50,361 bases of DNA from a virus. The DNA lies in the IMG/VR virus record IMGVR_UViG_3300046823_000218, positions 1 to 50,361 of that record; one strand, written 5' to 3'. The notes under the pieces are model-generated. The model saw only the letters and a program-made list of their open reading frames with translations. It did not search any database and was not told the DNA's origin. Shown piece after piece: positions 10,362-35,786 of the stretch (position 1 is the first letter of the stretch; every line of letters begins with the position of its first letter). The position numbers were made by a program, and so were the translations under genes.

Positions 10362-10823
10362 ATGCCTTTTGATCCGGAGACCGTCTCTTTCCTGCCCAGT
10401 TACAGTGTGGGTCTCCTTCCGCCTGCTGATGGAAGTTTGCAACCGGGCATGCTGCACCTTGAGCTGGCGGCGACGCCCCGGCTCTGGGTCGGCACTCTCA
10501 CGGAACTGGGTTTCGAGGGGAATGTCGCCGTGCTGGTGGCGACGCCGCCGCTCATGGCGCCTCTCAACCGCACCGCGCCCTATGTGTTTCAGGACGGGGA
10601 CACGCTCACCTGCACCATGGGCACCTGGACGGGGGAGCCGACCGCCTACTCCTACGAGTGGACGCTCGACGGGGCCCCCGCAGGGGACGACAGTGATGTT
10701 CTCACCGTCACCACGGCCGAGGTCGGGCAGGTCGCCGTCTGCGTGGTGACGGCGACCAACGACACTGGGACCACCGAAGGCCCGCCGTCCAACGAAGTCA
10801 CGGTCGCGGAGATTGCGCCATGA
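10362..10823 (+). CDS. Small tail-associated protein with an Ig-like repeat
   Basis: ORF track 153 aa. The segment GDTLTCTMGTWTGEPTAYSYEWTLDGAPAGDDSDVLTVTTAEVGQVAVCVVTATNDTG matches the widespread G-x-W-x-G-x-P-x-YxYxW ... VTAxN Ig-like pattern. Confidence 0.75.
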   Translation: MPFDPETVSFLPSYSVGLLPPADGSLQPGMLHLELAATPRLWVGTLTELGFEGNVAVLVATPPLMAPLNRTAPYVFQDGDTLTCTMGTWTGEPTAYSYEWTLDGAPAGDDSDVLTVTTAEVGQVAVCVVTATNDTGTTEGPPSNEVTVAEIAP

Positions 10824-12544
10824 GCCGCGCGCAGCACGGCAGTGACGGGCGGTTCGTTGCCGCTCGCGAAGAAGCCGAACCCACGCCCCTGGCTGCGCCG
10901 CCTCAGCCGATGGGGACCGGCGTGATGCGGGTGCAGCAGAACCGCTACGACAACTGGGTCGCCTCCGGCGGCACGCCGGAAATCTATGGTCCTGTGGTGC
11001 TGCCGCCACGGGCGACCGAGCTGACCTTCCCTGTCCCGGTGGCCGTCAACTCGGACGGCTATGCGCGTCCGGGACCGTTCACGTCGCGCAGCGGGATCAA
11101 CCCCGCGGTGCACCTGACCAAATACACGGCCGCAGCCTCGCCGGTGGTTGTGATTGTCGGCGACAGCACGTCCACGCCCACGCCAAACCCGCTCACTCCG
11201 CTTGACGTTCTCTGGTTTCAGCTTCAGCGCCGGATGCGCGAGGACAACCCGACGAAGACGCACAGCTTCCAGAATTTCGCGATGGGCGGCAGTGCGATGT
11301 CCACCTTCATCGCGCCGCAGGTGCTTGCCGACGGCGTGCTGACGATCCCCACCTGGTATACCAACAACACCGTGGCTTGGTGGACCTACGTTCAGGCGGT
11401 GATGCCGGACCTGCTTTTCTTCAACTTTGGCGTCAACGACAGCTTCAACCTCAACGCCGTTACGCTGGCCAGCGCGCTGTCCATCGTCAACGGCTGGGGC
11501 ACTGTCCCGCCCGCGTGGCAGGCCAACACCGCCTACACGCGCAACGCTGTCATCCTCGATAGCAACGGCAGGATGCAGGTTATGGCAGCTAACTCTGGCA
11601 CGTCCGGAGCAAGCCCGCCGACGTGGCAGACATCGCTGCACTCGCCGACCGTGGACAACACCGCGACGTGGTTGGTGATGAGCGCCGGCACCTACACGGC
11701 GAAGAAGCCAGATATTGTGCTGATCACCAACAAATCCGCCAACCCATCGGCAGGGGGAAACTTCAGCGCAACGAAATATCAGATCGGACGCCTGGCCGCA
11801 GCTTCATTGCAGCGGACGGCAGCGCTCAGCGGCTACAATTTCGGCGTCTCCGGTCTGCCGCGGCTTGGTCTCATCGACATCGGCCGCGTGTTCCAACAGG
11901 CGGTCAACGGCATTGATCCCGGTGAGCAGGTGATGTCGCAAAGCATCACGGCGCCGGTCACGGTCACCACGTTCCCGTACATACTGCCGCAGACGGACGG
12001 TGACCTGGACATGACCTGGACCATTCCAGGTTCAAACCAGACCGTGTTGACGTGCACGTTCTATCTCGCCGCGGCGGACGGGTCGACCACGTCCCAGCAA
12101 TACACCAACTACATTAACATCGGCACCAGCACGGGCACGAACATCTTCGCCAACTACTTCCCGGCGTTGGGCTCACCTGCCATGCCAGGGGCGAACCAGG
12201 GTTTTGGCTGGGTGTCGACGGGCAACAACACGGTGCAGATCACCCTTCGGGGCACGCACCTTTACGTCCTGGTCAACGGCTTCGTGCTCTATAACGCTCT
12301 GGTGCCGCGCTACCGCAGCCCGTGCACGCCGTCGATGAACATTCTCAGCCCTCCCGGCGGTTTTAGTCCCATTCTCGTTAGTTACAATCTCTCAACGATG
12401 CAGAAAACCACGCCGTCGCTGACGGCGACCGAGACTTACGGTTCGCTCAATGGCCCGACCGGGGGCAACGGCATCAACCACGATGCCTCGGCGGCAATCG
12501 CTGGTATCGATGCGCGTGTGCTCGACGCCACCCAGTTTGCGTAA
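10820..12544 (+). CDS. Tail protein with SGNH/GDSL-hydrolase (esterase/deacetylase) motifs
   Basis: ORF track 574 aa; the ATG overlaps the upstream stop (ATGA). SGNH block I is VVIVGDSTS, block II is FAMGGS, and block III is FNFGVNDS. Confidence 0.8.
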   Translation: MSRAQHGSDGRFVAAREEAEPTPLAAPPQPMGTGVMRVQQNRYDNWVASGGTPEIYGPVVLPPRATELTFPVPVAVNSDGYARPGPFTSRSGINPAVHLTKYTAAASPVVVIVGDSTSTPTPNPLTPLDVLWFQLQRRMREDNPTKTHSFQNFAMGGSAMSTFIAPQVLADGVLTIPTWYTNNTVAWWTYVQAVMPDLLFFNFGVNDSFNLNAVTLASALSIVNGWGTVPPAWQANTAYTRNAVILDSNGRMQVMAANSGTSGASPPTWQTSLHSPTVDNTATWLVMSAGTYTAKKPDIVLITNKSANPSAGGNFSATKYQIGRLAAASLQRTAALSGYNFGVSGLPRLGLIDIGRVFQQAVNGIDPGEQVMSQSITAPVTVTTFPYILPQTDGDLDMTWTIPGSNQTVLTCTFYLAAADGSTTSQQYTNYINIGTSTGTNIFANYFPALGSPAMPGANQGFGWVSTGNNTVQITLRGTHLYVLVNGFVLYNALVPRYRSPCTPSMNILSPPGGFSPILVSYNLSTMQKTTPSLTATETYGSLNGPTGGNGINHDASAAIAGIDARVLDATQFA

Positions 12545-23494: not shown

Positions 23495-24347
23495 CCCGAC
23501 GACCGGCTACCAGTATTACACCGAGGAGGGCGTGCCCTTGGAGTATGCGGTCCGGGGCGCGAACACGGTCGCGCAGTATCAGACCATGGCCAACCAGGAC
23601 CTGTCCGACAAGCAGATCGCCGCGCAGAAGGAGATTTCGGACAAGCAGGACGCGTTCAACCGCCAGCAGCTCGCCGATCAGGAAGCCCAGCAAGCAGCGC
23701 AACAGAAGGCTGCCCAGGAGCAGGCCGATCGGCAGACCGCCTACGACACCGGCCGCGCGCAGAACCTCGCCGCCGGCTCGCAGGCGGTCAATGATGCGTT
23801 CAAGCAGTTCAACGACGATTATTTCAACAAATACGCGTCCGACTACATGAAGCAGGTCGGGGACCAGGTCTCCTATCAGAAGGACCAGGCGACCAAGACC
23901 ACCGGCTACGACATGGCGCGCGCCGGCCTCGCCGACAGCCAGGCGCATGTCAACCAGCTTGGGCTGTTGGAGGAGACCGCAGGGCGCACGCTCGCGGACG
24001 AGACGCAGCTCGCGCAAAACCAGGCCAACACGCTCAAGACCAACATACTCAACACCAAGACCGGCCTCCTGGATCAGGTGCAGGCGTCGGAGAGCATCGG
24101 CTCGCCCATCGCCGGCAGCACGATGGACGATGTGAATGCCGCCTTGCAGACGCAGCGCAGCTCGATTTCCGGGATTTCGTCCAGCGCCAACGACGCCGTG
24201 GCGGCAACCAGCGGCGTGCCGCAGGTGAGCACGCTGGGGAACATATTCGCCAGCGCCCTCTCCGGCGTCGGCAGCTACGGCAGCGGCGTGCAGGCGAATA
24301 ATACGCTCAAGGCTGCCGGCCTGAAACCGACCAGTCCCTTCGGGTGA
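23439..24347 (+). CDS. Gln/Ala-rich internal virion (ejection) protein
   Basis: In-frame ATG 23439, 8 nt after GGAGG, within ORF 23259..24347. Coiled-coil-like composition (QAAQQKAAQEQADRQ). Confidence 0.7.
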   Translation: MCMGGGHPSSGPNHMLQTDPTTGYQYYTEEGVPLEYAVRGANTVAQYQTMANQDLSDKQIAAQKEISDKQDAFNRQQLADQEAQQAAQQKAAQEQADRQTAYDTGRAQNLAAGSQAVNDAFKQFNDDYFNKYASDYMKQVGDQVSYQKDQATKTTGYDMARAGLADSQAHVNQLGLLEETAGRTLADETQLAQNQANTLKTNILNTKTGLLDQVQASESIGSPIAGSTMDDVNAALQTQRSSISGISSSANDAVAATSGVPQVSTLGNIFASALSGVGSYGSGVQANNTLKAAGLKPTSPFG

Positions 24348-25405
24348 AGCTGACCGTGGCGCCCTTCGTCATCTTCTCGTTGCCGCGCAGCCGGTCCCGC
24401 TGGCTGTCGTCCTTCCTGGGCTATGGCGACTGGCAGTGCGGGCATGACGAGGTGCGGCACTGCCGTTCGCTGGATGATGTCAAATCGTGGCTGGCGCAGC
24501 CCTGCACGGGGACTGTCGAAACCGCGGGTGCGGCTTTCTGGCGCCTGCTGTTGCAGTATCAGCCGGATGTCCGCGTGGCGACGATCCGCCGGCCGGTCGA
24601 CGAGGTCCTGCACTCGCTCAAGGCAACCGGCGTGGAGTTCAACCACACCCTCATGCCTTTGCTGCGGCACCTGGACCGCAAGCTGGACCAGGTCGAACAG
24701 CGTGTGCCGGGGGTGCGGTCGTTTACTTTCGCGGACCTCAACACCGAAGCGTCTTGTGCCGAGCTGTTTGAATATTGCCTGCCCTACCGGCACGACAGCG
24801 CCTGGTGGCAGCAGTTAGCGCCGCTCAACGTGCAAATCAACCTCGACCATATGATGCGCTACTATCACGCGCACCGGCGGCAGTTAGACAAGGTTACGAA
24901 GCAGGCGAAGCAGCGCATGCTGAGCGCATTGCAACGCTCCCCGGAAATTGAGGGCGTCACCTTTCAAACGGAAACCATGGCGTCCTACGAGGAAGCTATC
25001 CCCTTGTTTCGGGAGCATGCGGTCGTCACCGATCGATCGCCGGACGCCTATTTGTTCGTGAATGTCCCGTTGATGCAACAGCTAGAGCGGGCGGGCGCTT
25101 TGCAGATCATTACGGCTCGCAGCAACGGCAGGCTGTTCGGTTATTTGATGTCTGTCGTCGGGCCTTGCCTGGAGTTCGAGGACAAGACGGTCGCGGTGCA
25201 CACGGCGTTCTTCGCGTCGCCGCTGATCCAAAACCTCGGCATGAAGTTGCAGCGTGCCGCGATGGAAACCTTGCGCGAGCGTGGGGTCAGTGAGGTCCAT
25301 ATGCGCGCCGGCGTGCGCGGGTCCGGCCCCCGGCTGGGGGCGTTCTATCGGCGGATGGGTGCTGAGGATTTTGGCCACCTGTATCGGCTTAGCTTGGAGC
25401 AATAA
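24344..25405 (+). CDS. Two-domain enzyme-like protein: sulfotransferase-like N-domain + GNAT-like C-domain
   Basis: ORF track 353 aa (GTG overlapping the upstream TGA). FSLPRSRSRWL resembles the 5'-phosphosulfate loop PRSGST. IRRPVDEVLHS fits the RxPxDxxxS 3'-phosphate motif. The C-terminus IQNLGMKLQRAAMETLRERGV ... LGAFYRRMGAEDFGHLY is GNAT-like. Confidence 0.75.
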   Translation: MKLTVAPFVIFSLPRSRSRWLSSFLGYGDWQCGHDEVRHCRSLDDVKSWLAQPCTGTVETAGAAFWRLLLQYQPDVRVATIRRPVDEVLHSLKATGVEFNHTLMPLLRHLDRKLDQVEQRVPGVRSFTFADLNTEASCAELFEYCLPYRHDSAWWQQLAPLNVQINLDHMMRYYHAHRRQLDKVTKQAKQRMLSALQRSPEIEGVTFQTETMASYEEAIPLFREHAVVTDRSPDAYLFVNVPLMQQLERAGALQIITARSNGRLFGYLMSVVGPCLEFEDKTVAVHTAFFASPLIQNLGMKLQRAAMETLRERGVSEVHMRAGVRGSGPRLGAFYRRMGAEDFGHLYRLSLEQ

Positions 25406-26420: not shown

Positions 26421-28511
26421 ATGCCCGTCACCTATTCGCCGGTCGGCGACTGGAACCAGGGGTTCAGCAACCTCGGCGCGGCTTTGTTCCCCAACCCCGC
26501 GGCGGTAGCGCAGGCTGGATACTACGGCGCCGAGCGGCGCCTGTCGTTGCTGAAAGGCAACGCAGCCATGGACGAGCAGGCAGCCAAGAATTGGCAGGAG
26601 GTATACACCCCTGGCACCGGCGTTACAGCGCCGCCGCAGCGCCAGTTCATCCACCCGCAAGGATCACCGGCTGATGCGCCGGCAGTCCTGGCAGACCCAC
26701 CTACCTTGCCGATCGTAGGCCAGACCCCGCCCTTGTCCTCGACTGTGGCTGGTCCTCCTGCTGCCGCCCCGAGTGGCAACGGCGTCCCACCGCCGACGCC
26801 GACGATCCCCCCGGCGCAGCTCGCCGACACGATCACGAACAGCAGCCTAACCCAAGGCAAACCCCCGGCCTCGTCTTCGCCGGCGCCGAACTCAGCGGTG
26901 CCCCCTGCGCCCAACACCACCGGATCGGATGGCAGCGTCCCTGGCAACGACGCCAGCAGCGCCGTCATTCATCCGGGGACGCTTCAGCAGTCCGGCGGCG
27001 GCGTGAAGATGGCGCCCCCGGCGCAGGCCAATGGTTCACCGGCGGCGCCGGCTTTCAATCCGCAGCTCATCGCCTGGAACCTGGCGCGTTCGGGCCTCGA
27101 CCACAACGCGGTGAACGCCCAGCTTTCGGCTTACGTGGTCACGGCCATGAAACAGGGCATCATCGACAAAGTCACCGGGGACAACGCCCTGTCTGCCTTC
27201 CAGGCCACCGGTCCGCTGCAAGCCGATGTCACCGTGCGGGGCCAGGATGTGGAGGCGGGGACCAGGCGGGCGGTCACCAGTATGGAGCAGGCAGGCGCGA
27301 ACCAGCGCCAGCAGATGGTGATCGCCGAGCAGCAACGGAAAGAGGGCGAAGAACTCGTTGTCATCCCTGGTGCGAAACCTGGGACCACCGTGGAGAAACG
27401 GCGCAAGGATTTGCAGCCGGGAGAAATCCCGATCGCGACGGCAGCCGAGCAGGCCGCGGGGCTAGCGATCATCCCTGTTATCGGGACTGACGGCAAGCTC
27501 ACGAGCGTCCGCGGCGACGACTATCAGAAGAACCCGGGCGCCTACGTGCGCGCGCCAGATGCTATTCTGAACGTCGACAAGGAAAATGTCGGCAAGGCTC
27601 AGTCCTCCGTGGACACAGCGATGGCGCGGATGTTTGCGCCGCCGCCGACCGTCCTTGGCACTCCATACACGCAACCGGCCCGAGCGCCTGGTGATGTCAA
27701 TGCGGCGATCGTCGCACGCACCGCGGAACTTATCACGGGGACCGAAAGTCGGTTCCGCAACCAGCCAGAGGCCGCGGCTAATCAGGCGATCCAGGAAGCG
27801 ATCAATGCAAAGCAACTGCCGAACGTCGACGATGCGGCAAAAGCCCGCGAATACTATACGACCCACAACCTGGCGCAGGCGCACATCTCGAAACAGTCCG
27901 ACCCGTATGGGACCAAGACGGGTGAGTTTTTCATCCTCGACAAGCCTGCCAACGTGGCGAAAACAGTGAGCGATGCCGCGGCTGGTGCAAGCGGGGTCAA
28001 AACCCCAGCCCAGACGACGACGCAGACACAAACCCCCGCACCCGGATCGACCAACGCGATCACCACACCGGTCACCCCACCGGTCACCCCACCGGTAGAC
28101 CCGCTCGCAACCGATCCTTCTCTGGGGGGCGACGCAACGTTGCAACCGAACTTAAGTTCAGTGTCCAATGTATTGCTCAAACCTGATCCGCGTTACTCCA
28201 CCCCGCAAACCCGCGGCGAGTTGCCGGCGCCGGTAGCGATGCCTGCCGAGCTGCCGTCCCTGTCGGACACCGTCGCGGCGCCGGTGACGGGCGTGCCGCA
28301 GCAGGCACCGCAAATGGCCTTCGCAGCGCCGTCCAACCCGCGGGTGTCCTTGCCGCAGGGTGCCCTCGATGTGGCGCCCGCCGGCGCTTTTGAGGGCCAG
28401 GTTGTCACTGGCGAGCGGGGGACCAGGGGTGTCGTGCACGGGGGCTTCGTCTATCCGCTGGTGCCAACGGCGCGGCAGGCCCGCCCGGCTGTCCTGAGCC
28501 AAGGCCGATGA
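26421..28511 (+). CDS. Internal virion (ejection) protein, 696 aa
   Basis: ORF track. Supported by position and by a central P/A/S-rich low-complexity region. Confidence 0.7.
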   Translation: MPVTYSPVGDWNQGFSNLGAALFPNPAAVAQAGYYGAERRLSLLKGNAAMDEQAAKNWQEVYTPGTGVTAPPQRQFIHPQGSPADAPAVLADPPTLPIVGQTPPLSSTVAGPPAAAPSGNGVPPPTPTIPPAQLADTITNSSLTQGKPPASSSPAPNSAVPPAPNTTGSDGSVPGNDASSAVIHPGTLQQSGGGVKMAPPAQANGSPAAPAFNPQLIAWNLARSGLDHNAVNAQLSAYVVTAMKQGIIDKVTGDNALSAFQATGPLQADVTVRGQDVEAGTRRAVTSMEQAGANQRQQMVIAEQQRKEGEELVVIPGAKPGTTVEKRRKDLQPGEIPIATAAEQAAGLAIIPVIGTDGKLTSVRGDDYQKNPGAYVRAPDAILNVDKENVGKAQSSVDTAMARMFAPPPTVLGTPYTQPARAPGDVNAAIVARTAELITGTESRFRNQPEAAANQAIQEAINAKQLPNVDDAAKAREYYTTHNLAQAHISKQSDPYGTKTGEFFILDKPANVAKTVSDAAAGASGVKTPAQTTTQTQTPAPGSTNAITTPVTPPVTPPVDPLATDPSLGGDATLQPNLSSVSNVLLKPDPRYSTPQTRGELPAPVAMPAELPSLSDTVAAPVTGVPQQAPQMAFAAPSNPRVSLPQGALDVAPAGAFEGQVVTGERGTRGVVHGGFVYPLVPTARQARPAVLSQGR

Positions 28512-29062
28512 GCTTCCTCGACACGCTGATCAACGCCGAAAGCGGCGGGAAAAACATCTCGGGCCTCGGCGGCGCGCAGGGCTATTTCCAGATCACGCCG
28601 GACACGTGGCGGGACTTCGCGCCGCACGTGAACATCGACCTCAGCCAGTATCCGAACCCCCTCAGCGCCCCTCTCCTGGTGCAGAAGCAGGTGGCCTCCG
28701 TGATCCCGGAGGGGCGCTGGGGGCCGCGCACGCAGCGCATCCTTCAGCAGAACTACGGCACGCTCGATCCGACCCTGCCGATGGGGCACTATATCGGGCT
28801 GTTCGGGGACAGCTCCGGCGCGCCACCCGCCGCGCCCGCCCCGGAGCCGCCCACGGGTTTCGGCCTGCCGTCCCCGGATGCGGTCAGCATGCCGTTGTCC
28901 CCGGCCATGCCCCAGGTCCCGGGGGATGTCACCACGCCCACGGCTGCCCCGCAGCAACGACTGCCCTTCGGCATGCCGCCGGCCTCGTTCGGTGACGACA
29001 TCACGCAGGCGGCGCAGCAGATGCAGCGACAGATCGACCCGCGGACGAGGTCGCGCGCGTGA
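28508..29062 (+). CDS. Lytic transglycosylase (SLT-type), probably virion-associated
   Basis: ORF track 184 aa. INAESGGKNISGLGGAQGYFQITPDTW matches the ES(G)G...G(L/Y)xQ(I/L) SLT catalytic pattern. The stop overlaps the start of the giant gene (GTGA). Confidence 0.8.
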   Translation: MSFLDTLINAESGGKNISGLGGAQGYFQITPDTWRDFAPHVNIDLSQYPNPLSAPLLVQKQVASVIPEGRWGPRTQRILQQNYGTLDPTLPMGHYIGLFGDSSGAPPAAPAPEPPTGFGLPSPDAVSMPLSPAMPQVPGDVTTPTAAPQQRLPFGMPPASFGDDITQAAQQMQRQIDPRTRSRA

Positions 29063-32000
29063 CGCCCTTCGATAACCCGCCGACCGAGAAGTTCTCGTTA
29101 ACGCCCCCGGCTTCGCCTGTCGCGACGACGGCGGCCCAAAGCACCGGACGAGATAGTAGTATTTTGTCAGTTTTGTCAGGTGCCTCGCAGGCGGTTACAC
29201 CGCAACCCTCTGTCCCAGGACCAGGACCAGGACCAGGACCAGCCCCAGGACCAGCCCCAGGACCAGCCCCAGGACCAGCCCCAGGACCAGCCCCACCGAC
29301 CGAGCGATTTTCGCTCCCCGACACCCAGCCGATGCCCACCGGGGCTGCGCCGGTCCCGGCCTCTGTCCCGGGGGACCAGACGGCCGCGGCCCCGCCCACC
29401 GAGCAGCCCCCGGAACAGTCCGCGCTGGGTTGGGTCGGGGACCAGCTCAGCAGCTTCGCCTCTGGTGCGTGGCAGGGCGTCAAATCCATCCCCGAGGCTT
29501 TCACCACACAGCCGTTCGCGCCGCCCACAGGGACCGAGGCCAAACCGCCCGGGGACTTCGCCGGTGCCACCGGCTACGGCATCACGAGTTCGGTCCCGAT
29601 GCTGGCCGGTGGCGCCGGAGGCGCCCTTCTCGGGACCGCGATCGGCGGTCCGCCCGGGGGCATCGCCGGGGGTGCCCTGGGCATGTTCGCCGGCACCGTG
29701 GTCCAGGAGCTGCGGCCGGGCTACGTGGCGGCGGTAAACTCCGGCCTGGACCATGACGCCGCGGTCAACCAGGCGATCACGCAGGCGCTCGCGCAAGGGA
29801 CGTTCAGCGGGCTGACGGCGCCGCTATTCGCGTGGGCGCCCTTCAAGGGCCTGGTGGGCAAGCTGTTGTTCACCAGCATGGCAACAGGTCCTGCCGTTGG
29901 TGCCGCGGGTCGGGTGGTGGTCCCGGCAGTCACCGGGCAGCCGATGCCCTCGGCGGAAGAACTCGCCAAGGGCGTGGGCCAGGACGTGATCACCGGGTTT
30001 ACCCTGGGCGGCGTGCACGAAGCCGGTCGGGCGATCGTAGGGCACGGCGCACCCGCCGCGAAGCCGGGGACCACGGTCAGGGGCCGGCTGCCGGTGCTAC
30101 CCGAGAGCACAGAGCCTCCACCGGGGGGCGCACCGGGCGCAGAGCCTCCACCAGCACCGGGGGCTGGGACAGAGCCTCCAGCGCCGTCACCCGCGCCTGA
30201 AGCTCCCGCAACTGATCTTCAGCCGCGTCCAGGCGAGCCTGTCCCCGGGACACCAACCCCGACCACCCCCACCGCTGTTGCTGATACCGGCGCTGAAGGA
30301 GCCGTTGCCAAAACTGAACCACCATCCCCCACACCTCCAACCGACGGAAGGACGCCCACCGATGTCGTCGATCACCCTACACCACCCGTGCCAGCAGCTC
30401 CTGCCCCTGAACCTGTCCCTGGTGTCGTCGAAACCCCCGCTGGACGCGGTGGCGTTCCTGTCTCGGAGGCCGGCACGCAGGAGGCCGGTGCTGGTGGCGG
30501 TCCAGCTCCTGCTGCCCCTGCCGGCGCCGATACTGGCGCCGCACCCGGCGTCGGTGAAACACGCCAAGCTGGCGGCGGACTGACGCCCCCGGCGCAAGAA
30601 CACCCGGCGCTCACTGCGCTCAAGCAGGTCGCGGACCCGATCAGCGCGAAAGACCTGATCCGGCAGAACCTTGACCTGCCCGACGCCGCCGCGGCGGCGA
30701 TGGTGGCCCCGGACGGGCGGATTTTCATGTTCCGCCCCGGCTACCATGACTATGCGACATCGCACGCCGATTTCGCGGTCCAGCACCCGGACCATCCGTT
30801 CATCGAACTCTCGTCCTTCGGCGGCAAGGAAATCGGTGCGTCGAAGCCCTCGCCGGGTGCACCGACTGACGCTCAGATGCGCACGATCAACGCGCTTCGG
30901 CAGCTCACGCAGCGTGAAGGAGGCAACCTAACCACCAGTTTTCAGCAAACCCCATCCCCCGCAGCACCCTCCGTAGTCGCTTCGTCAGCTTCTCCCGTGG
31001 AGCGGGCGACCGCCAAGGACCAGGCAGCGGTGGGAGCGCCCGGCGTTGAAGCAGCCGCCCCTGCCCGGGAAGCGGCTTCGGCGCCGGGCGTCACCCCTCC
31101 TGGTCTCCGGCCCGAGGACCAGGTCCGCGTCGGCCAGCTCGATCGGCAAATAACGCGCCTGCAAGAGGACATCGCCAAGGCTCCTGCTGGTCCTGCGCGC
31201 ACGACGCTGGAAGGCCAGCTCGAACGGCTGCAAGCGAGCCGGGCTGAAATCACCACCGGGACCGCCGCCAAGCCCGAGGCCCAGCCGGCGCTGGACAAGC
31301 TCAACAAGCAGATCGCGCCCTTGGAGGCGCGGGTCGAAAAGCTCGTCGCCAAGGAAAACCTCACGAAGGCCGAGCAGCGGGAGCTGGGGAACAAGCAGGA
31401 CCAGCTCGCGAAGCTGCGGGTGCAGCGGGACCAGCTCGTCGGCGCGTCCGATGCCGAGGGCCTCGCCAGCCGCCGGTGGCGCCCGCGCAACCTGAAGCCC
31501 TACGAGCCACCGCCGGAGCCGACGCTCACCCGGGACTTCCATCACTACCAGTTCCAGAACGGCACCAGCGTCTACTCGAAAGCGTTCGCCGATGCCGGCC
31601 ACGATCCCCGGTTAGCGACCAGCTATCCGGTGGCCAAGCAGCTCAAAATCCTCACCGAGCAGACGCAGCGGCAGTTCGGTTTCAAGAGCGTCAAGTTCAG
31701 TCCCGATCACCCCGGCGGCAAGGTGGCGATCGACGAGCTGTTGAACCTCTACCGCGGCATCCACGACATGATGGCGGCGCACAACCTGCCGCTCGATTAC
31801 GCCAGCATGGGCGGCAAGCTTCACCTGCAACTGGAACCGTTGCGCAGTGGTCCCAAAGCCTACTATGGCCAATATTCCTATGGCCCTCTCGGCCGGACCA
31901 TCCACATCGCCGGTGGCTCCAACGTGTTCGGTCACGAGTGGATACACGCGTTCGACCATGACCTCATCGAGCGCATGCAGCTCGACCCGCAGCGCACGAA

Positions 32001-35000
32001 CCTCCTGTCCCGGTTCACCCGGGACAAGGGCCTCGATCCCAAGGACGGCACGAAAGCCGCGTTCGCCAAGCTCCTCAACACGATGTTCTACGACGAGGGC
32101 GACCTCGCGCATCAGCGTATGCAGTTGCAACAGCTCGCCGGCGAAGTGCGCAAGGACGGCAGCCCCACCGAGATGGCGCGGATGGCACAGGAGAACCTGA
32201 AAGTAATCGAAAGCGGTAAGGCAATGAAAATGCAAATCAAGTCCAGCGAATACCGCAAGATGGCAAAGGAGTTTTCCCCTAACAACCCCTATTGGTCCGA
32301 CGAGGAGGAACTGCTGGCGCGCGCCGGGGAAAGCTACCTGGCCCGCGGCATGGAGCAGAACGGCGTTAACCCGCGTGGCGTGGTGATGCCCGATGAAGCC
32401 TACGCCCGCGGGTTGGACAAGCGCCTCAAAATGACATTTCCCAAGAACGACGAGCTCATGGCGATCCACGCGGCGTTCAAGGATGTCTTCGACGCGGCGC
32501 GGGCCGAGGGCATCTGGGGGTCGGCCGCCGCTGCCAAGTCTAACGACTACGGCATGGTCGACCCGAACGGCTTCATGCGCACCGCGCGGCTCGCCGGGGA
32601 CACGCCCACGCTGCGCAAGAAGGCCATCGAGTTCATGCAGGTTGGAAACAACCTGAAGCGCGTGCAGAAGAGCATGAAGGAGACCACGCCCTTCGACCGC
32701 TCGCGGCCGATCGCCGAGCGCAAATGGTCGAAGCGGGCCAGCCTCTGGGCGGGCCACGTGTTCAACTCGAAACTCGCCGCCATGGACGCCATTATCAAGG
32801 CGAACCCGGAAAGTGCCAGGCCATACCTGCAACAGATCAGGGACGCGTTCGGCTCCCAGCACGGGAGCGGCCGCGCCACCGGCGAGGGCATGGAACAGGA
32901 AAGCCGCGCGCAGGCTACAACCTGGCAGAACGGCCTCGCGGCGATCCTGCAAAAGCACGGCCTGTTAGAAAAGATGACCGACCTTCAGGACCGCATGATC
33001 GTCTGGGGACTGACCACCGGTGAGGACAATTATCGCGGCACGCCGATGCCGGACAACGTCAAGAGCGTGATCCAGGAAGCGCGGTTGCTGCACAACCAGG
33101 TCTTCGACACCGCCGAGCGTGCGAAGCTCGACATCGAATATGTCGGTCAGCAATATCCGCGCATCTATGATACGAGCAAGATCAACGCCAACCAGTCCAA
33201 CAAGGACGCTTTCACCGCCGATGCGACCAAGGTTTACAAGGTGGATTTCAACAACCAGGTGGGCGTCCCCGGGGACAAACCTGACGTGTTACTGAAAAAA
33301 TACCGGCAGCTCAGTCCCGGGGACAAGAGCGACATCGACACCAAAAATCCCGGCGTGAACGCCGGCATGAAAGAGCTGGGCAAGAACCTCCGGCGCCAGC
33401 GTGCGATTGAAAAACAACTGGCGGCGGGGCCAGACCCGGCGCTCAGCGCCGAGCTGGCGCAGTTGCAGGCCGAGGCGCGCCAGCTCGCCGAGGACCATCA
33501 CGATGCGATCGGGGACCACATTTCCAGCGAAGCCGCCATCGACTGGCAACTGCGCACGAGCAAAGGCTATCCCGGCGACTTCGAGAAAATCGGTCCCAGC
33601 GGACGGTTCTTGCAGCATCGCACCCTGCCGCCGGAAACCGACCGGCTCATGGAAAACTGGATGGTCCGGGACGTGCGCACGGTCCTGCCGCAATATTACG
33701 AGCAGGTCGCGCGCAAGGTGGCATACGCGAAGCGGCTTGGTCCCAAAGGCGAAATCCTGGAGAGCCTGCTCGACAATGCAGCCCGTCACGGCCTGATGCT
33801 CAACGATGGCCCGACCATGCGCGGTCTCGTCCAGCAGATCACCGGCTACGGCGAAGACGGCAACGCCACACACAATGTCATCGGCCCCCTGGCAAATAGC
33901 GTGAACGCCTACGGGGCGGCGTTGCTGATGCCGCGATCGATGTGGACCTCCCTGCACGAGTTTGCAGTCTCGGGCCTGGCCACCGGGGATCTGCGCGTGT
34001 CCCTGCGCTCGCTCGCCAACATCATGGGCGACATCATCGGCACGGGGGCAGCGCACGATCGCCGCGAGGTCGCAGACCTTGTGGGTGTCACCCAATCGAA
34101 ACTGGCCGAAAGCCTGATGACTGCGCGCATCGGCAGCGACTACCATGACAGCCCGCGCATCGCGTGGCTGATGCAGAAATACTATAAAATGATCGGCCTG
34201 ACCGGCCTGACCAACGCGATCCGCCGCGCCAATTTCGGGGCACTGAACTGGCACCTGCGGAACCAGTCCCGCAACCTGCTGTCCGCCGAGCAGGGGGCTT
34301 ACTGGGACCTGCGACGGGACCGGGCACGGCGGCTGTTCAACGAGATGGGCATCCCGCCTGCGGAGCACTTGGCGTTCGCCGCCGAGATGCTGACGCATGA
34401 TGGCGTGCCCGAGTTCAATTACCTGACCGATCCGAACAACGCCGGCTTCGCGCGGCTCTACGGGCGGGCGATGCGTCAGTTGTCCGACTGGTCCTCGCAG
34501 AACCCTTACAAGGGAGACCGGCCGGCGCTGGCCGAAACCCCGATGGGCCGGTTCGTCTGGCAGCTTCAACACTTCAACTACGCATTCCAGCGCAACGTGC
34601 TCGACCCGATGGTCCACAACATGGGGACCGACTTTGCCTTCATGCGCGACCGGGCGCTGGCACAAGGCGCCGGCTATCTTTCGTCGCGCCTGCACGGCAT
34701 CGGCGGACTGGCTAACGCGGGCGTAGGCTTTGCCGGCGCGGCGGGCCTTCTCGTGGCGTCGTCGCTCGTGACCACGATGCTGCGCGAGATGCTGTTCAAC
34801 GGGGACAAGCTGGACGAGCACAAAAAGAAAGGCGACCTCGGGGACTGGTTCACCGACCTGGCGATCCAACGTGCTGGTCTCTCGGGGTCGCTCGATCCCT
34901 TGGTCCAGATGGTCAACAATATGCGCTACAATGCCGACGCCAACAGCCTGATCGCCGGTGCCAGCCCCACCTTCATCGCCAAGAACCTCACTGACGTGAT

Positions 35001-35568
35001 CCGGGGCGTGCAGTCCGCATTCGACCCTGAGGCACCGGAGACCAACACCCGCGCGCATGACGCCACCAAGGCGCTCTACAACCTGGTGGGCATCCCGGCG
35101 ATGGCGATGATGTCGATGGGGATAGCAGGTGCGGGTGTGCCCCTGGTGACCCCAGGGGCCAGCTTCGCGTTCCAGAAACTGTCCTCCCAGCAAAGCGCCG
35201 AACACGCCGCCGACGTCACCGGTCCCAAGGGCGCGAAGCTGCCCAAGGGCGGCGAGGAGGACATGAATATGACCCCGGACCTGTCCTCCACGGCGGACGA
35301 GGGCATGAATATGACGCCCGACCTGCTTGCCGAACCCAAGCCCGGGGAGAAGACCGGCGGGACGGTGGGCGCCAGCGTGCCCTGGGGCTTCCTCGACGAC
35401 TTCATCGCACCCGCTGCACCGCTGGTGAAATCGGGCCTGGGCATCGTCCCTGGCTGGATGAAGGCGGGGGCAGTAGGTGCGGCAGGGCTTGCCGGTGCCA
35501 GCAGTTTCATGTCAAGGATGGAACCATACCGGAACGCACCCGCGCCGGAGACGCCCCGCTCCCGTTAG
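29059..35568 (+). CDS. Giant internal virion / ejection protein (2169 aa) with an HExxH zincin-like motif and C-terminal TM segments (T7 gp16 position)
   Basis: ORF track. PGPGPGPAPGPAPG... repeat at 29215-29298. Glycine-zipper TM-like segments are present. HIAGGSNVFGHEWIHAFDHD has its HEWIH at 31933-31947. C-terminal hydrophobic helices and an MNMTPDL x2 repeat are also present. Confidence 0.85.
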   Translation: MTPFDNPPTEKFSLTPPASPVATTAAQSTGRDSSILSVLSGASQAVTPQPSVPGPGPGPGPAPGPAPGPAPGPAPGPAPPTERFSLPDTQPMPTGAAPVPASVPGDQTAAAPPTEQPPEQSALGWVGDQLSSFASGAWQGVKSIPEAFTTQPFAPPTGTEAKPPGDFAGATGYGITSSVPMLAGGAGGALLGTAIGGPPGGIAGGALGMFAGTVVQELRPGYVAAVNSGLDHDAAVNQAITQALAQGTFSGLTAPLFAWAPFKGLVGKLLFTSMATGPAVGAAGRVVVPAVTGQPMPSAEELAKGVGQDVITGFTLGGVHEAGRAIVGHGAPAAKPGTTVRGRLPVLPESTEPPPGGAPGAEPPPAPGAGTEPPAPSPAPEAPATDLQPRPGEPVPGTPTPTTPTAVADTGAEGAVAKTEPPSPTPPTDGRTPTDVVDHPTPPVPAAPAPEPVPGVVETPAGRGGVPVSEAGTQEAGAGGGPAPAAPAGADTGAAPGVGETRQAGGGLTPPAQEHPALTALKQVADPISAKDLIRQNLDLPDAAAAAMVAPDGRIFMFRPGYHDYATSHADFAVQHPDHPFIELSSFGGKEIGASKPSPGAPTDAQMRTINALRQLTQREGGNLTTSFQQTPSPAAPSVVASSASPVERATAKDQAAVGAPGVEAAAPAREAASAPGVTPPGLRPEDQVRVGQLDRQITRLQEDIAKAPAGPARTTLEGQLERLQASRAEITTGTAAKPEAQPALDKLNKQIAPLEARVEKLVAKENLTKAEQRELGNKQDQLAKLRVQRDQLVGASDAEGLASRRWRPRNLKPYEPPPEPTLTRDFHHYQFQNGTSVYSKAFADAGHDPRLATSYPVAKQLKILTEQTQRQFGFKSVKFSPDHPGGKVAIDELLNLYRGIHDMMAAHNLPLDYASMGGKLHLQLEPLRSGPKAYYGQYSYGPLGRTIHIAGGSNVFGHEWIHAFDHDLIERMQLDPQRTNLLSRFTRDKGLDPKDGTKAAFAKLLNTMFYDEGDLAHQRMQLQQLAGEVRKDGSPTEMARMAQENLKVIESGKAMKMQIKSSEYRKMAKEFSPNNPYWSDEEELLARAGESYLARGMEQNGVNPRGVVMPDEAYARGLDKRLKMTFPKNDELMAIHAAFKDVFDAARAEGIWGSAAAAKSNDYGMVDPNGFMRTARLAGDTPTLRKKAIEFMQVGNNLKRVQKSMKETTPFDRSRPIAERKWSKRASLWAGHVFNSKLAAMDAIIKANPESARPYLQQIRDAFGSQHGSGRATGEGMEQESRAQATTWQNGLAAILQKHGLLEKMTDLQDRMIVWGLTTGEDNYRGTPMPDNVKSVIQEARLLHNQVFDTAERAKLDIEYVGQQYPRIYDTSKINANQSNKDAFTADATKVYKVDFNNQVGVPGDKPDVLLKKYRQLSPGDKSDIDTKNPGVNAGMKELGKNLRRQRAIEKQLAAGPDPALSAELAQLQAEARQLAEDHHDAIGDHISSEAAIDWQLRTSKGYPGDFEKIGPSGRFLQHRTLPPETDRLMENWMVRDVRTVLPQYYEQVARKVAYAKRLGPKGEILESLLDNAARHGLMLNDGPTMRGLVQQITGYGEDGNATHNVIGPLANSVNAYGAALLMPRSMWTSLHEFAVSGLATGDLRVSLRSLANIMGDIIGTGAAHDRREVADLVGVTQSKLAESLMTARIGSDYHDSPRIAWLMQKYYKMIGLTGLTNAIRRANFGALNWHLRNQSRNLLSAEQGAYWDLRRDRARRLFNEMGIPPAEHLAFAAEMLTHDGVPEFNYLTDPNNAGFARLYGRAMRQLSDWSSQNPYKGDRPALAETPMGRFVWQLQHFNYAFQRNVLDPMVHNMGTDFAFMRDRALAQGAGYLSSRLHGIGGLANAGVGFAGAAGLLVASSLVTTMLREMLFNGDKLDEHKKKGDLGDWFTDLAIQRAGLSGSLDPLVQMVNNMRYNADANSLIAGASPTFIAKNLTDVIRGVQSAFDPEAPETNTRAHDATKALYNLVGIPAMAMMSMGIAGAGVPLVTPGASFAFQKLSSQQSAEHAADVTGPKGAKLPKGGEEDMNMTPDLSSTADEGMNMTPDLLAEPKPGEKTGGTVGASVPWGFLDDFIAPAAPLVKSGLGIVPGWMKAGAVGAAGLAGASSFMSRMEPYRNAPAPETPRSR

Positions 35569-35585: not shown

Positions 35586-35786
35586 ATGGACCGCAAAGAA
35601 CGCGAAATCCGCGACTGGCTTGGCATGTCGCTGTTCTTCATCTGCATCGGCTTCTTCATCTGCTGGTTGGAAGGCGACCTTTCCCCCTTCATGGTGTTCG
35701 GTATCCTGATCGGCATGCCTCTGTTCGTCGGGGTGATCGGTGTCCTGAGTAACCTGCTTGAAAGCCACAAAAAGCCCCTTTCTTAG
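35586..35786 (+). CDS. Holin-like small membrane protein (2 TM)
   Basis: ORF track 66 aa. It has a charged N-terminus, two hydrophobic helices and a charged C-terminus. It is the last gene of the late operon. Confidence 0.55.
   Translation: MDRKEREIRDWLGMSLFFICIGFFICWLEGDLSPFMVFGILIGMPLFVGVIGVLSNLLESHKKPLS

Follow-up and report, generated by a model that had tools for sequence, protein, structure and literature searches.

Giant multidomain proteins of phage virion modules have been described repeatedly. The polyvalent proteins delineated by Iyer et al. in 2017 (J Bacteriol; PMC5512222) carry LPD or metallopeptidase (MPTase) domains, LPD1 among them, and include a widespread phage-type MPTase variant with an aspartate three residues after the HExxH motif; CLCA_X (Lenart 2013; PMC3650047) is a family of predicted zincins, known chiefly from phages, prophages and plasmids, whose members frequently form part of proteins exceeding 1000 aa in which no further domain is recognised; and gp47 of phage phi24B was detected in virions by mass spectrometry, is invisible in the cryo-electron microscopy map and is proposed to be an ejection protein (bioRxiv 10.64898/2026.04.10.717836). 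We compared with these systems the giant gene P0001, which encodes a protein of 2169 aa, and its small upstream neighbour P0002 in the IMG/VR virus record IMGVR_UViG_3300046823_000218, the whole of which (50,361 bp, G+C approximately 65%) was analysed and is called the window below. Taken as a whole, P0001 is best explained as an ejected polyvalent internal virion protein with a gluzincin-like module that cuts its own chain, and we consider this explanation probable. The class is already known and very common, from the computational descriptions of CLCA_X in 2013 and of the polyvalent proteins in 2017 to the experimental work on phi24B gp47 in 2026; P0001 adds a cleanly dissected member to it and leaves the view of phage ejection unchanged, with modest refinements: LPD1 is paired with a HEWxH helix, the protease lies at a junction, and small transglycosylases share a tail.

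The first-pass annotation of the window, made from the sequence alone, had pointed to HEWIH at nucleotides 31933-31947 and suggested aligning homologues at H959, E960 and H963; the motif (aa 959-963) is indeed there, is the sole HExxH of P0001, and all three residues are invariant in homologues. In an alignment of 61 sequences from diverse loci, with identity to the window down to 19% (set A2), the invariant positions are H959, E960, W961, H963, D966, Y1078, E1084 and R1088, and the pair of motifs HE[W/Y/F]xH[A/G]xD and ExxARxxE is present in all 161 proteins examined, its members 56-150 residues apart. D966 is invariant in every set and H967 nearly so; A964, invariant in a set of 17 sequences, is glycine in 4 of the 161 proteins. 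HEWIHAFD, with its aspartate three residues beyond the motif, agrees with the phage-type MPTase variant of Iyer et al. An insert of approximately 110 residues separates the HEWxHAxDH helix of P0001 from its predicted glutamate helix. In the crystal structure of ArdC (PMC7213743), H201, H205 and E229 coordinate the metal and E202 is the catalytic base; alignment to H201, E202 and H205 yields the roles predicted for H959, E960 and H963 (Table 1). E960, H959, H963 and E1084 are thereby pinpointed as candidate residues for mutation.

An AlphaFold2 model of aa 827-1196, built on the 61-sequence alignment, has a mean predicted local distance difference test score (pLDDT) of 91.4 and a predicted template modelling score (pTM) of 0.88. 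According to DSSP it comprises a helix (model positions 61-81), strands (95-100, 111-116 and 119-125) and a helix bearing HEWIH (131-146), followed by a helical insert and a further helix (256-274) bearing E1084, R1088 and E1091. Iyer et al. (PMC5512222) describe the zincin core as a sheet of three strands that has one helix N-terminal to it and two C-terminal to it, variable inserts occurring between these two, and the order of elements in the model matches this core. Comparison by hhalign with 18 ArdC-type MPTase-PolyVal (PF18818) domains from bacterial genomes gave a probability of 42% without splicing, aligning the region 'Y.p...I.lP ... HE..H'; 72.8% (E 3.2e-5) for the N-terminal half alone, also un-spliced; and 88-90.5% (E 1.4e-6 to 3.1e-6) with the insert columns removed, whereas reversed, column-shuffled and unrelated control profiles gave at most 0.8%. 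These alignments point to homology of the module to the ArdC-type MPTase at the profile level; a direct HMMER comparison of the two gave no match. The aligned parts are a strand, the helix with HExxH and the glutamate helix with Y..EE(L/M).A, and in the spliced alignment E1084 falls on the second glutamate of the ArdC 'EEL' motif, E229, so that E1084 is predicted to be the third metal ligand, on the glutamate helix. ArdC of R388 differs in having only about 25 residues between the two helices, against about 120 in P0001, and in being a 300-aa conjugative-plasmid protein with a single-stranded-DNA-binding domain. The NCBIfam model CLCA_X (NF041907), a family that likewise conserves an aspartate just after HExxH, matches aa 897-1010 (E 3.5e-5); because its score of 23 bits is far below the family cut-off of 260, the module appears to be a distant relative of CLCA_X at best. 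In BFVD, the significant Foldseek matches of the model were a 'phage head morphogenesis domain' protein and members of the family itself, and the weak ones (E 0.3-1) included zincins of the IrrE, SprT, lethal-factor, M48 and M61 types. The P0001 family does not conserve the histidine with which strand 2 ends in the description of Iyer et al.

LPD1 (PF18796) is matched by 61 of the 61 aligned relatives, and all eight LPD1 matches that the Pfam model alone retrieved from bacterial genomes have HEWxHAxD in the same frame 72-183 residues upstream. Pfam lists LPD1 as a domain of unknown function; because every aligned relative matches it, none has a Pfam match over the HExxH half, and the bacterial matches carry the upstream motif, LPD1 appears to behave as the C-terminal, glutamate-helix half of a protease-like module and not as an independent domain. 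In the relatives examined it is always paired with the invariant HEWxHAxD helix. Short HEWxH-LPD1 versions are encoded in Lachnospiraceae (L165, frame 382-1836, 485 aa) and Aliidiomarina (L166, frame 901-1749, 283 aa), and P0085 (355 aa) and P0150 (305 aa) are further examples, bacterial genomes and metagenomes being the sources of such proteins; therefore, the module also occurs outside giant proteins.

Homologues of P0001 are abundant. A word-based search found 22, mostly on contigs of 47-51 kb; pattern scans detected related stretches in IMG/VR (at least 253) and in species genomes (at least 156); and a profile search of 1.84 billion cluster representatives returned 6,870 at E <= 1e-3, of which 3,461 had E <= 1e-30. 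In thousands of short-tailed phages, giant LPD1-bearing proteins account for 10-20% of the genome. The 161 examined relatives have a median length of 2169 aa, and segments of P0001 recur among them very unevenly: aa 827-1196 in 161, aa 1501-1870 in 150 and aa 1871-2060 in 143. Aa 827-2060 form a frame common to approximately 6,900 protein clusters, and the N-terminal 826 residues are variable; the protease module lies where this variable part gives way to a constant C-terminal frame of some 900 residues (764-1038 aa from the end of the module to the stop codon in 52 loci). Pfam matches in the N-terminal parts of 34 relatives comprise ddrB-ParB (17), InPase (3), LPD5 (2), ART-PolyVal (1) and FtsK_gamma (1). 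The resemblance to polyvalent proteins that had been suggested for P0001 is thus upheld by these domains and by an LPD1 match above the gathering score; unlike such relatives, P0001 has no recognisable effector domain in its N-terminus. A described counterpart in build is phi24B gp47 (the 933W-type LPD5-LPD1-LPD38 protein), which also exceeds 2000 aa, carries LPD1 and belongs to a temperate short-tailed phage, and which differs in possessing LPD5, LPD38 and MuF-C, none of which Pfam finds in P0001.

According to the preferred explanation, P0001 would be packed inside the capsid and, when infection begins, would pass out through the tail along with the small transglycosylase (Rpf/SLT-like) that the coupled upstream gene encodes. 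The transglycosylase would open the peptidoglycan, the C-terminal frame would help to form a trans-envelope conduit for DNA, and the protease at the variable/constant boundary would cut its own polypeptide, before packaging or after ejection, freeing the N-terminal part. We infer head packing and ejection from the analogy with phi24B gp47 and from the annotations of PHROG and of KPP25-like Pseudomonas podophages, whose virion proteins match aa ~1507-1856. Several points weigh against this explanation. That the protease probably cleaves itself is a role taken from Iyer et al., who propose self-processing for the polyvalent class and cite the processing of P1 DdrB (PMC5512222); the highest hhalign figure depends on a splice of our choosing; no Pfam model covers the HExxH half of P0001 or of any of the 61 aligned relatives; the module model has no significant Foldseek match in the PDB, the best (E 0.14) being the metalloprotease MATCAP, itself a zincin; and the C-terminal frame resembles no solved ejection protein, its model having no Foldseek match in the PDB and only membrane transporters as best hits, at chance level. 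The zincin fold anticipated in the first-pass annotation is supported indirectly, by the element order, the ArdC-type MPTase alignment and the sub-threshold CLCA_X match, and not by a significant fold match in the PDB. A more elaborate combined proposal would have LPD1 as the glutamate helix of a split gluzincin (insert of 56-183 residues), the protease as a release switch at the cargo/conduit boundary in approximately 6,900 clusters that cuts itself after ejection to free cargo in the cell, and the transglycosylase tail (SLADAFxQAA-like) as a docking peptide for co-packaging on the giant protein; all of this together is possible, and we hold it only tentatively.

The protease might instead be an injected effector that cleaves a host protein, such as a defence protein or a repressor, as listed among the options by Iyer et al. 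(PMC5512222). The module also occurs by itself, in short frames (283 and 485 aa) and proteins (305 and 355 aa), and ArdC is reported to require its protease domain for overcoming the restriction systems of the recipient host (PMC7213743). However, a role in cis is favoured because the module keeps a fixed position between variable and constant parts in thousands of giant proteins, making an effector acting on the host unlikely. A cell-wall enzyme, as the authors of the phi24B preprint propose for the gp47 metallopeptidase (bioRxiv 10.64898/2026.04.10.717836), would cut peptide stems of peptidoglycan or envelope lipoprotein links in the periplasm beside the transglycosylase, allowing the ejection conduit to cross the wall. 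Closer relatives always encode the module next to or near a muralytic gene, yet Pfam shows no similarity of the module to the M15 or M23 wall peptidases, and its nearest profile relatives (the ArdC-type MPTase and, weakly, IrrE- and SprT-type proteins) act on cytoplasmic proteins and not on murein; we regard a wall substrate as rather improbable. A catalytically dead module, kept as a structural, metal-stabilised fold of an ejection protein, would agree with the N4 virion RNA polymerase, which retains an MPTase domain yet is packaged unprocessed (PMC5512222), and no activity has been demonstrated for any LPD1-bearing protein; the invariance of the general base E960 and of the pocket residues D966, Y1078 and R1088 at 19-30% overall identity is what is expected of an active enzyme, and loss of catalysis is very unlikely. 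Least credible of all is that P0001 is the tape measure of a long-tailed phage with muralytic and protease parts acting at the tail tip: although great length, a mostly helical make-up and hydrophobic segments rich in glycine would suit such a protein, and although its only cultured relative, Microcystis phage Mae-Yong1326-1, is reported to have a 340-nm flexible tail that would fit a 2441-aa tape measure and is odd beside a short-tailed-looking gene set, the idea is rejected because of gene order (P0001 is last in the late operon, without a tail-tube gene, chaperone pair or baseplate genes around it; scans with PHROG, NCBIfam and other profiles detected no tail-tube or chaperone families in the window), because Mae-Yong1326-1 has a 'tail tubular protein' and a 'packaged DNA stabilization protein', parts of short-tailed phages, because the C-terminal 940 aa are predicted to form a compact bundle (pTM 0.81) and not a long coiled coil, and because relatives carry ddrB-ParB, ART and InPase cargo, the LPD1-bearing gp47 moreover belonging to a short-tailed phage.

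Table 1. Features of the P0001 locus (positions in the window)
Feature	Position	Strand	Basis or remark
696-aa gene directly 5' of P0002	26421..28511	+	ATGA overlap; synteny kept with L003, L010 and L012
P0002, putative Rpf/SLT-like lytic transglycosylase	28508..29062	+	184 aa, ATG start; ES catalytic motif (E11), P-rich linker, conserved C-terminal amphipathic tail
P0001, probable giant polyvalent internal virion (ejection) protein	29059..35568	+	2169 aa, GTG start within GTGA
PG/PA dipeptide repeat, aa 53-78	29215..29292	+	sequence
Glycine-zipper, weakly hydrophobic N-terminal domain, aa 131-345	29449..30093	+	11 GxxxG motifs in aa 161-260
Orphan segment between low-complexity linkers, aa 521-640	30619..30978	+	non-repetitive
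Charged, heptad-like, coiled-coil-like stretch, aa ~690-810	31126..31488	+	only weak coiled-coil-type Pfam matches
Predicted zincin-like (gluzincin-type) metallopeptidase module, aa 827-1196	31537..32646	+	alignments, AlphaFold2, hhalign, NCBIfam
HEWIHAFDH	31933..31959	+	predicted metal ligands H959 and H963; predicted catalytic base E960
Pfam LPD1 (PF18796), aa 1075-1148	32281..32502	+	33.6 bits against a cut-off of 27
Predicted glutamate helix YWSDEEELLARAGE, aa 1078-1091	32290..32331	+	Y1078, E1084 and R1088 invariant
Conserved all-alpha C-terminal frame, aa 1230-2060	32746..35238	+	includes PHROG 30152 'virion structural protein' region, aa 1533-1856
Hydrophobic helix 1, aa 1878-1915	34690..34803	+	Kyte-Doolittle peak 1.68
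Hydrophobic helix 2, aa 2004-2039	35068..35175	+	Kyte-Doolittle peak 1.68
Two MNMTPDL copies, aa 2069-2075 and 2083-2089	35263..35325	+	predicted disorder, pLDDT <50 for aa 2067-2134
Weaker hydrophobic Gly-rich helix pair in C-terminal tail, aa 2111-2147	35389..35499	+	tail found in 10 of 161 relatives

Taken alone, P0002 has no match above threshold in Pfam, PHROG or the PDB; its score with the Rpf-type model PF06737 is 15.5 bits (E 0.029), below the Pfam gathering cut-off of 27. Homologues taken from the same position in sister contigs (profile A3) place it as a putative divergent Rpf/SLT-like transglycosylase, an assignment evident at the family level only: E11, S12, G25, Q28, T33 and W34 are invariant across the family, six of seven members match PF06737 at E <= 1 (best 1.8e-11) and two match SLT. 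A PDB search with profile A3 returned only sub-significant matches to lysozymes and transglycosylases. Like PF06737 and SLT (PF01464), P0002 has the motif ES...G(Y/F)(Y/F)Q(I/F)..(T)W with its invariant glutamate; unlike them, it has only a short and divergent stretch after the motif. Other sister phages have a canonical SLT gene at the P0002 position, with which P0002 shares the C-terminal tail motif as well, and hhalign aligns the P0002 family to these SLT-type genes over the catalytic motif with 89.7% probability. The gene had been described as SLT-type; a transglycosylase it does appear to be at the family level, with a sequence nearer to the Rpf-type PF06737 than to SLT. It had also been described as split from the giant protein in comparison with T7. 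The transglycosylase gene is separate, abutting or overlapping the giant frame, in 12 loci besides the window, and is fused to the N-terminus of the giant protein in two proteins (locus L014, and P0021); because of this distribution a separate gene is the usual state of the family, with fusion also occurring, and no special fission event is indicated. With two narrow profiles the remaining loci gave no transglycosylase match, although such a gene may still be present there. Whether Rpf-like or SLT-like, the small transglycosylases encoded before the giant gene have similar C-terminal amphipathic tails (SLADAFxQAA...Q), as at L003:6813-7370, L004:1976-2644, L010:7040-7696, L012:6774-7271 and L045:6153-6866; the copy in the window (28940-29059) is degenerate (ASFGDDITQAAQQMQ).

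In T7, gp16 carries a transglycosylase at its own N-terminus and no zincin, and its structures are among the solved chains in the PDB. In common with P0001, it is the largest protein, its gene comes last among the ejection genes, and a lytic transglycosylase accompanies it. We do not claim homology of P0001 to gp16 or to any solved ejection protein, because Foldseek gave no significant match in the PDB for either model (aa 827-1196 and 1230-2169); sequence searches of the PDB with phmmer and hmmsearch (P0001 and profile A1) likewise returned nothing for the giant protein. The T7 comparison of the first-pass annotation is thus reduced to an analogy of position, no similarity in sequence or fold to any solved structure having been detected. 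Bordetella phage BPP-1 resembles the window in layout: the transglycosylase is borne by a protein of its own, Bbp11, encoded upstream, and next comes Bbp10 (2052 aa), which has an HExxH motif. It differs in that Bbp11 has 720 aa against 184 for P0002. Bbp10 was a seed of the CLCA_X family (PMC3650047). Direct homology of Bbp10 to P0001 could not be demonstrated, since only its glutamate-helix motif 'EQFARGFEAYL' matched the module profile. In the BPP-1 bbp10-bbp11 region (L189:6187-14504), Bbp10 is annotated only as 'crystallin beta/gamma motif-containing protein', although it has HESGH together with the 'EQFARGFEAYL' helix.

The N-terminal 826 residues of P0001 are lineage-specific and consist of a repeat, a glycine-zipper domain, low-complexity linkers, an orphan segment and a coiled coil (Table 1). 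They have no Pfam match and no recognisable enzyme or effector domain, and Pfam searches with sub-fragments of P0001 at E <= 10 gave only LPD1 and coiled-coil noise. A PGPAPG repeat, glycine-zipper segments and a coiled-coil region had all been noted here previously: the first corresponds to the PG/PA repeat, the second is substantiated by the GxxxG motifs, and the third is a charged heptad-like stretch with weak Pfam support. Low complexity rich in proline, alanine and threonine, previously put at about 600 residues, is present to a lesser extent, 350-500 residues in total (aa 1-130, 346-520 and ~641-700). In a segment-wise search, the glycine-zipper domain was found in 16 of the 161 relatives and the orphan segment (aa 521-640) in none of them; the latter has no Pfam match either. 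Its composition suggests that the orphan segment is folded as a domain, and it may be a private cargo domain of this phage.

AlphaFold2 predicts the C-terminal 940 aa of P0001 (32746-35565) to be an all-alpha bundle (pLDDT 84.7, pTM 0.81), and the C-terminal block aligns with that of Mae-Yong1326-1. The three C-terminal hydrophobic helices reported earlier were recovered, the third (aa 2111-2147) being weaker, as was the duplicated MNMTPDL peptide, which begins at aa 2069 and 2083. The C-terminal tail is common to 10 of the 161 relatives and is visible in P0006, P0014 and P0021.

P0002 and P0001 stand at the end of the virion (ejection) operon; the phage is temperate and short-tailed. The stop codon of P0002 overlaps the start of P0001 in GTGA (29059-29062), in agreement with the earlier description of a separate 184-aa gene whose stop overlaps the GTG of a 2169-aa gene, and the 696-aa gene overlaps P0002 in ATGA (28508-28511). 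Because both junctions overlap, the three genes are probably translated as one coupled unit. The 696-aa gene, probably coupled to P0002 in translation, occupies the position of a middle ejection protein and has no matches in Pfam, PHROG or NCBIfam. P0001 is the last gene of a late operon that also encodes the large terminase and contains portal, major head protein and tail-fibre matches. The viral contigs L003, L010 and L012 and Mae-Yong1326-1 keep the same succession of genes from the head region up to the giant gene, and gene order is also conserved with related viral contigs of 47-52 kb. Comparison of the region by blastn with 50,697 phage records gave no matches, and a search of 185,579 species genomes for a close prophage found none, the best match being a Pontibacterium metagenome-assembled genome at 30% identity.

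Elsewhere in the window, a gene at 24344-25405 has Pfam matches to sulfotransferase and GNAT, and a 574-aa gene just 5' of the terminase (10820-12544) has a weak match to the GDSL-lipase/acylhydrolase family (E 0.0012, below the cut-off). Directly 3' of the giant gene, a 66-aa open reading frame (35586-35786) with two hydrophobic helices (MDRKEREIRDWLGMSLFFICIGFFICWLEGDLSPFMVFGILIGMPLFVGVIGVLSNLLESHKKPLS) closes the late operon, with a convergent gap beyond it. The homologue in Mae-Yong1326-1, ORF38 (L001:8416-15741, OP028995; 2441 aa), has been labelled 'peptidoglycan transglycosylase'; the label is unsupported, as Pfam finds only LPD1 in this protein and P0002 does not align with it. ORF38 also has a second HExxH motif, HELGH, in 'LKTILHELGHVVVW', outside every Pfam model. 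Many of the best BLAST hits of Mae-Yong1326-1 are to alphaproteobacteria.

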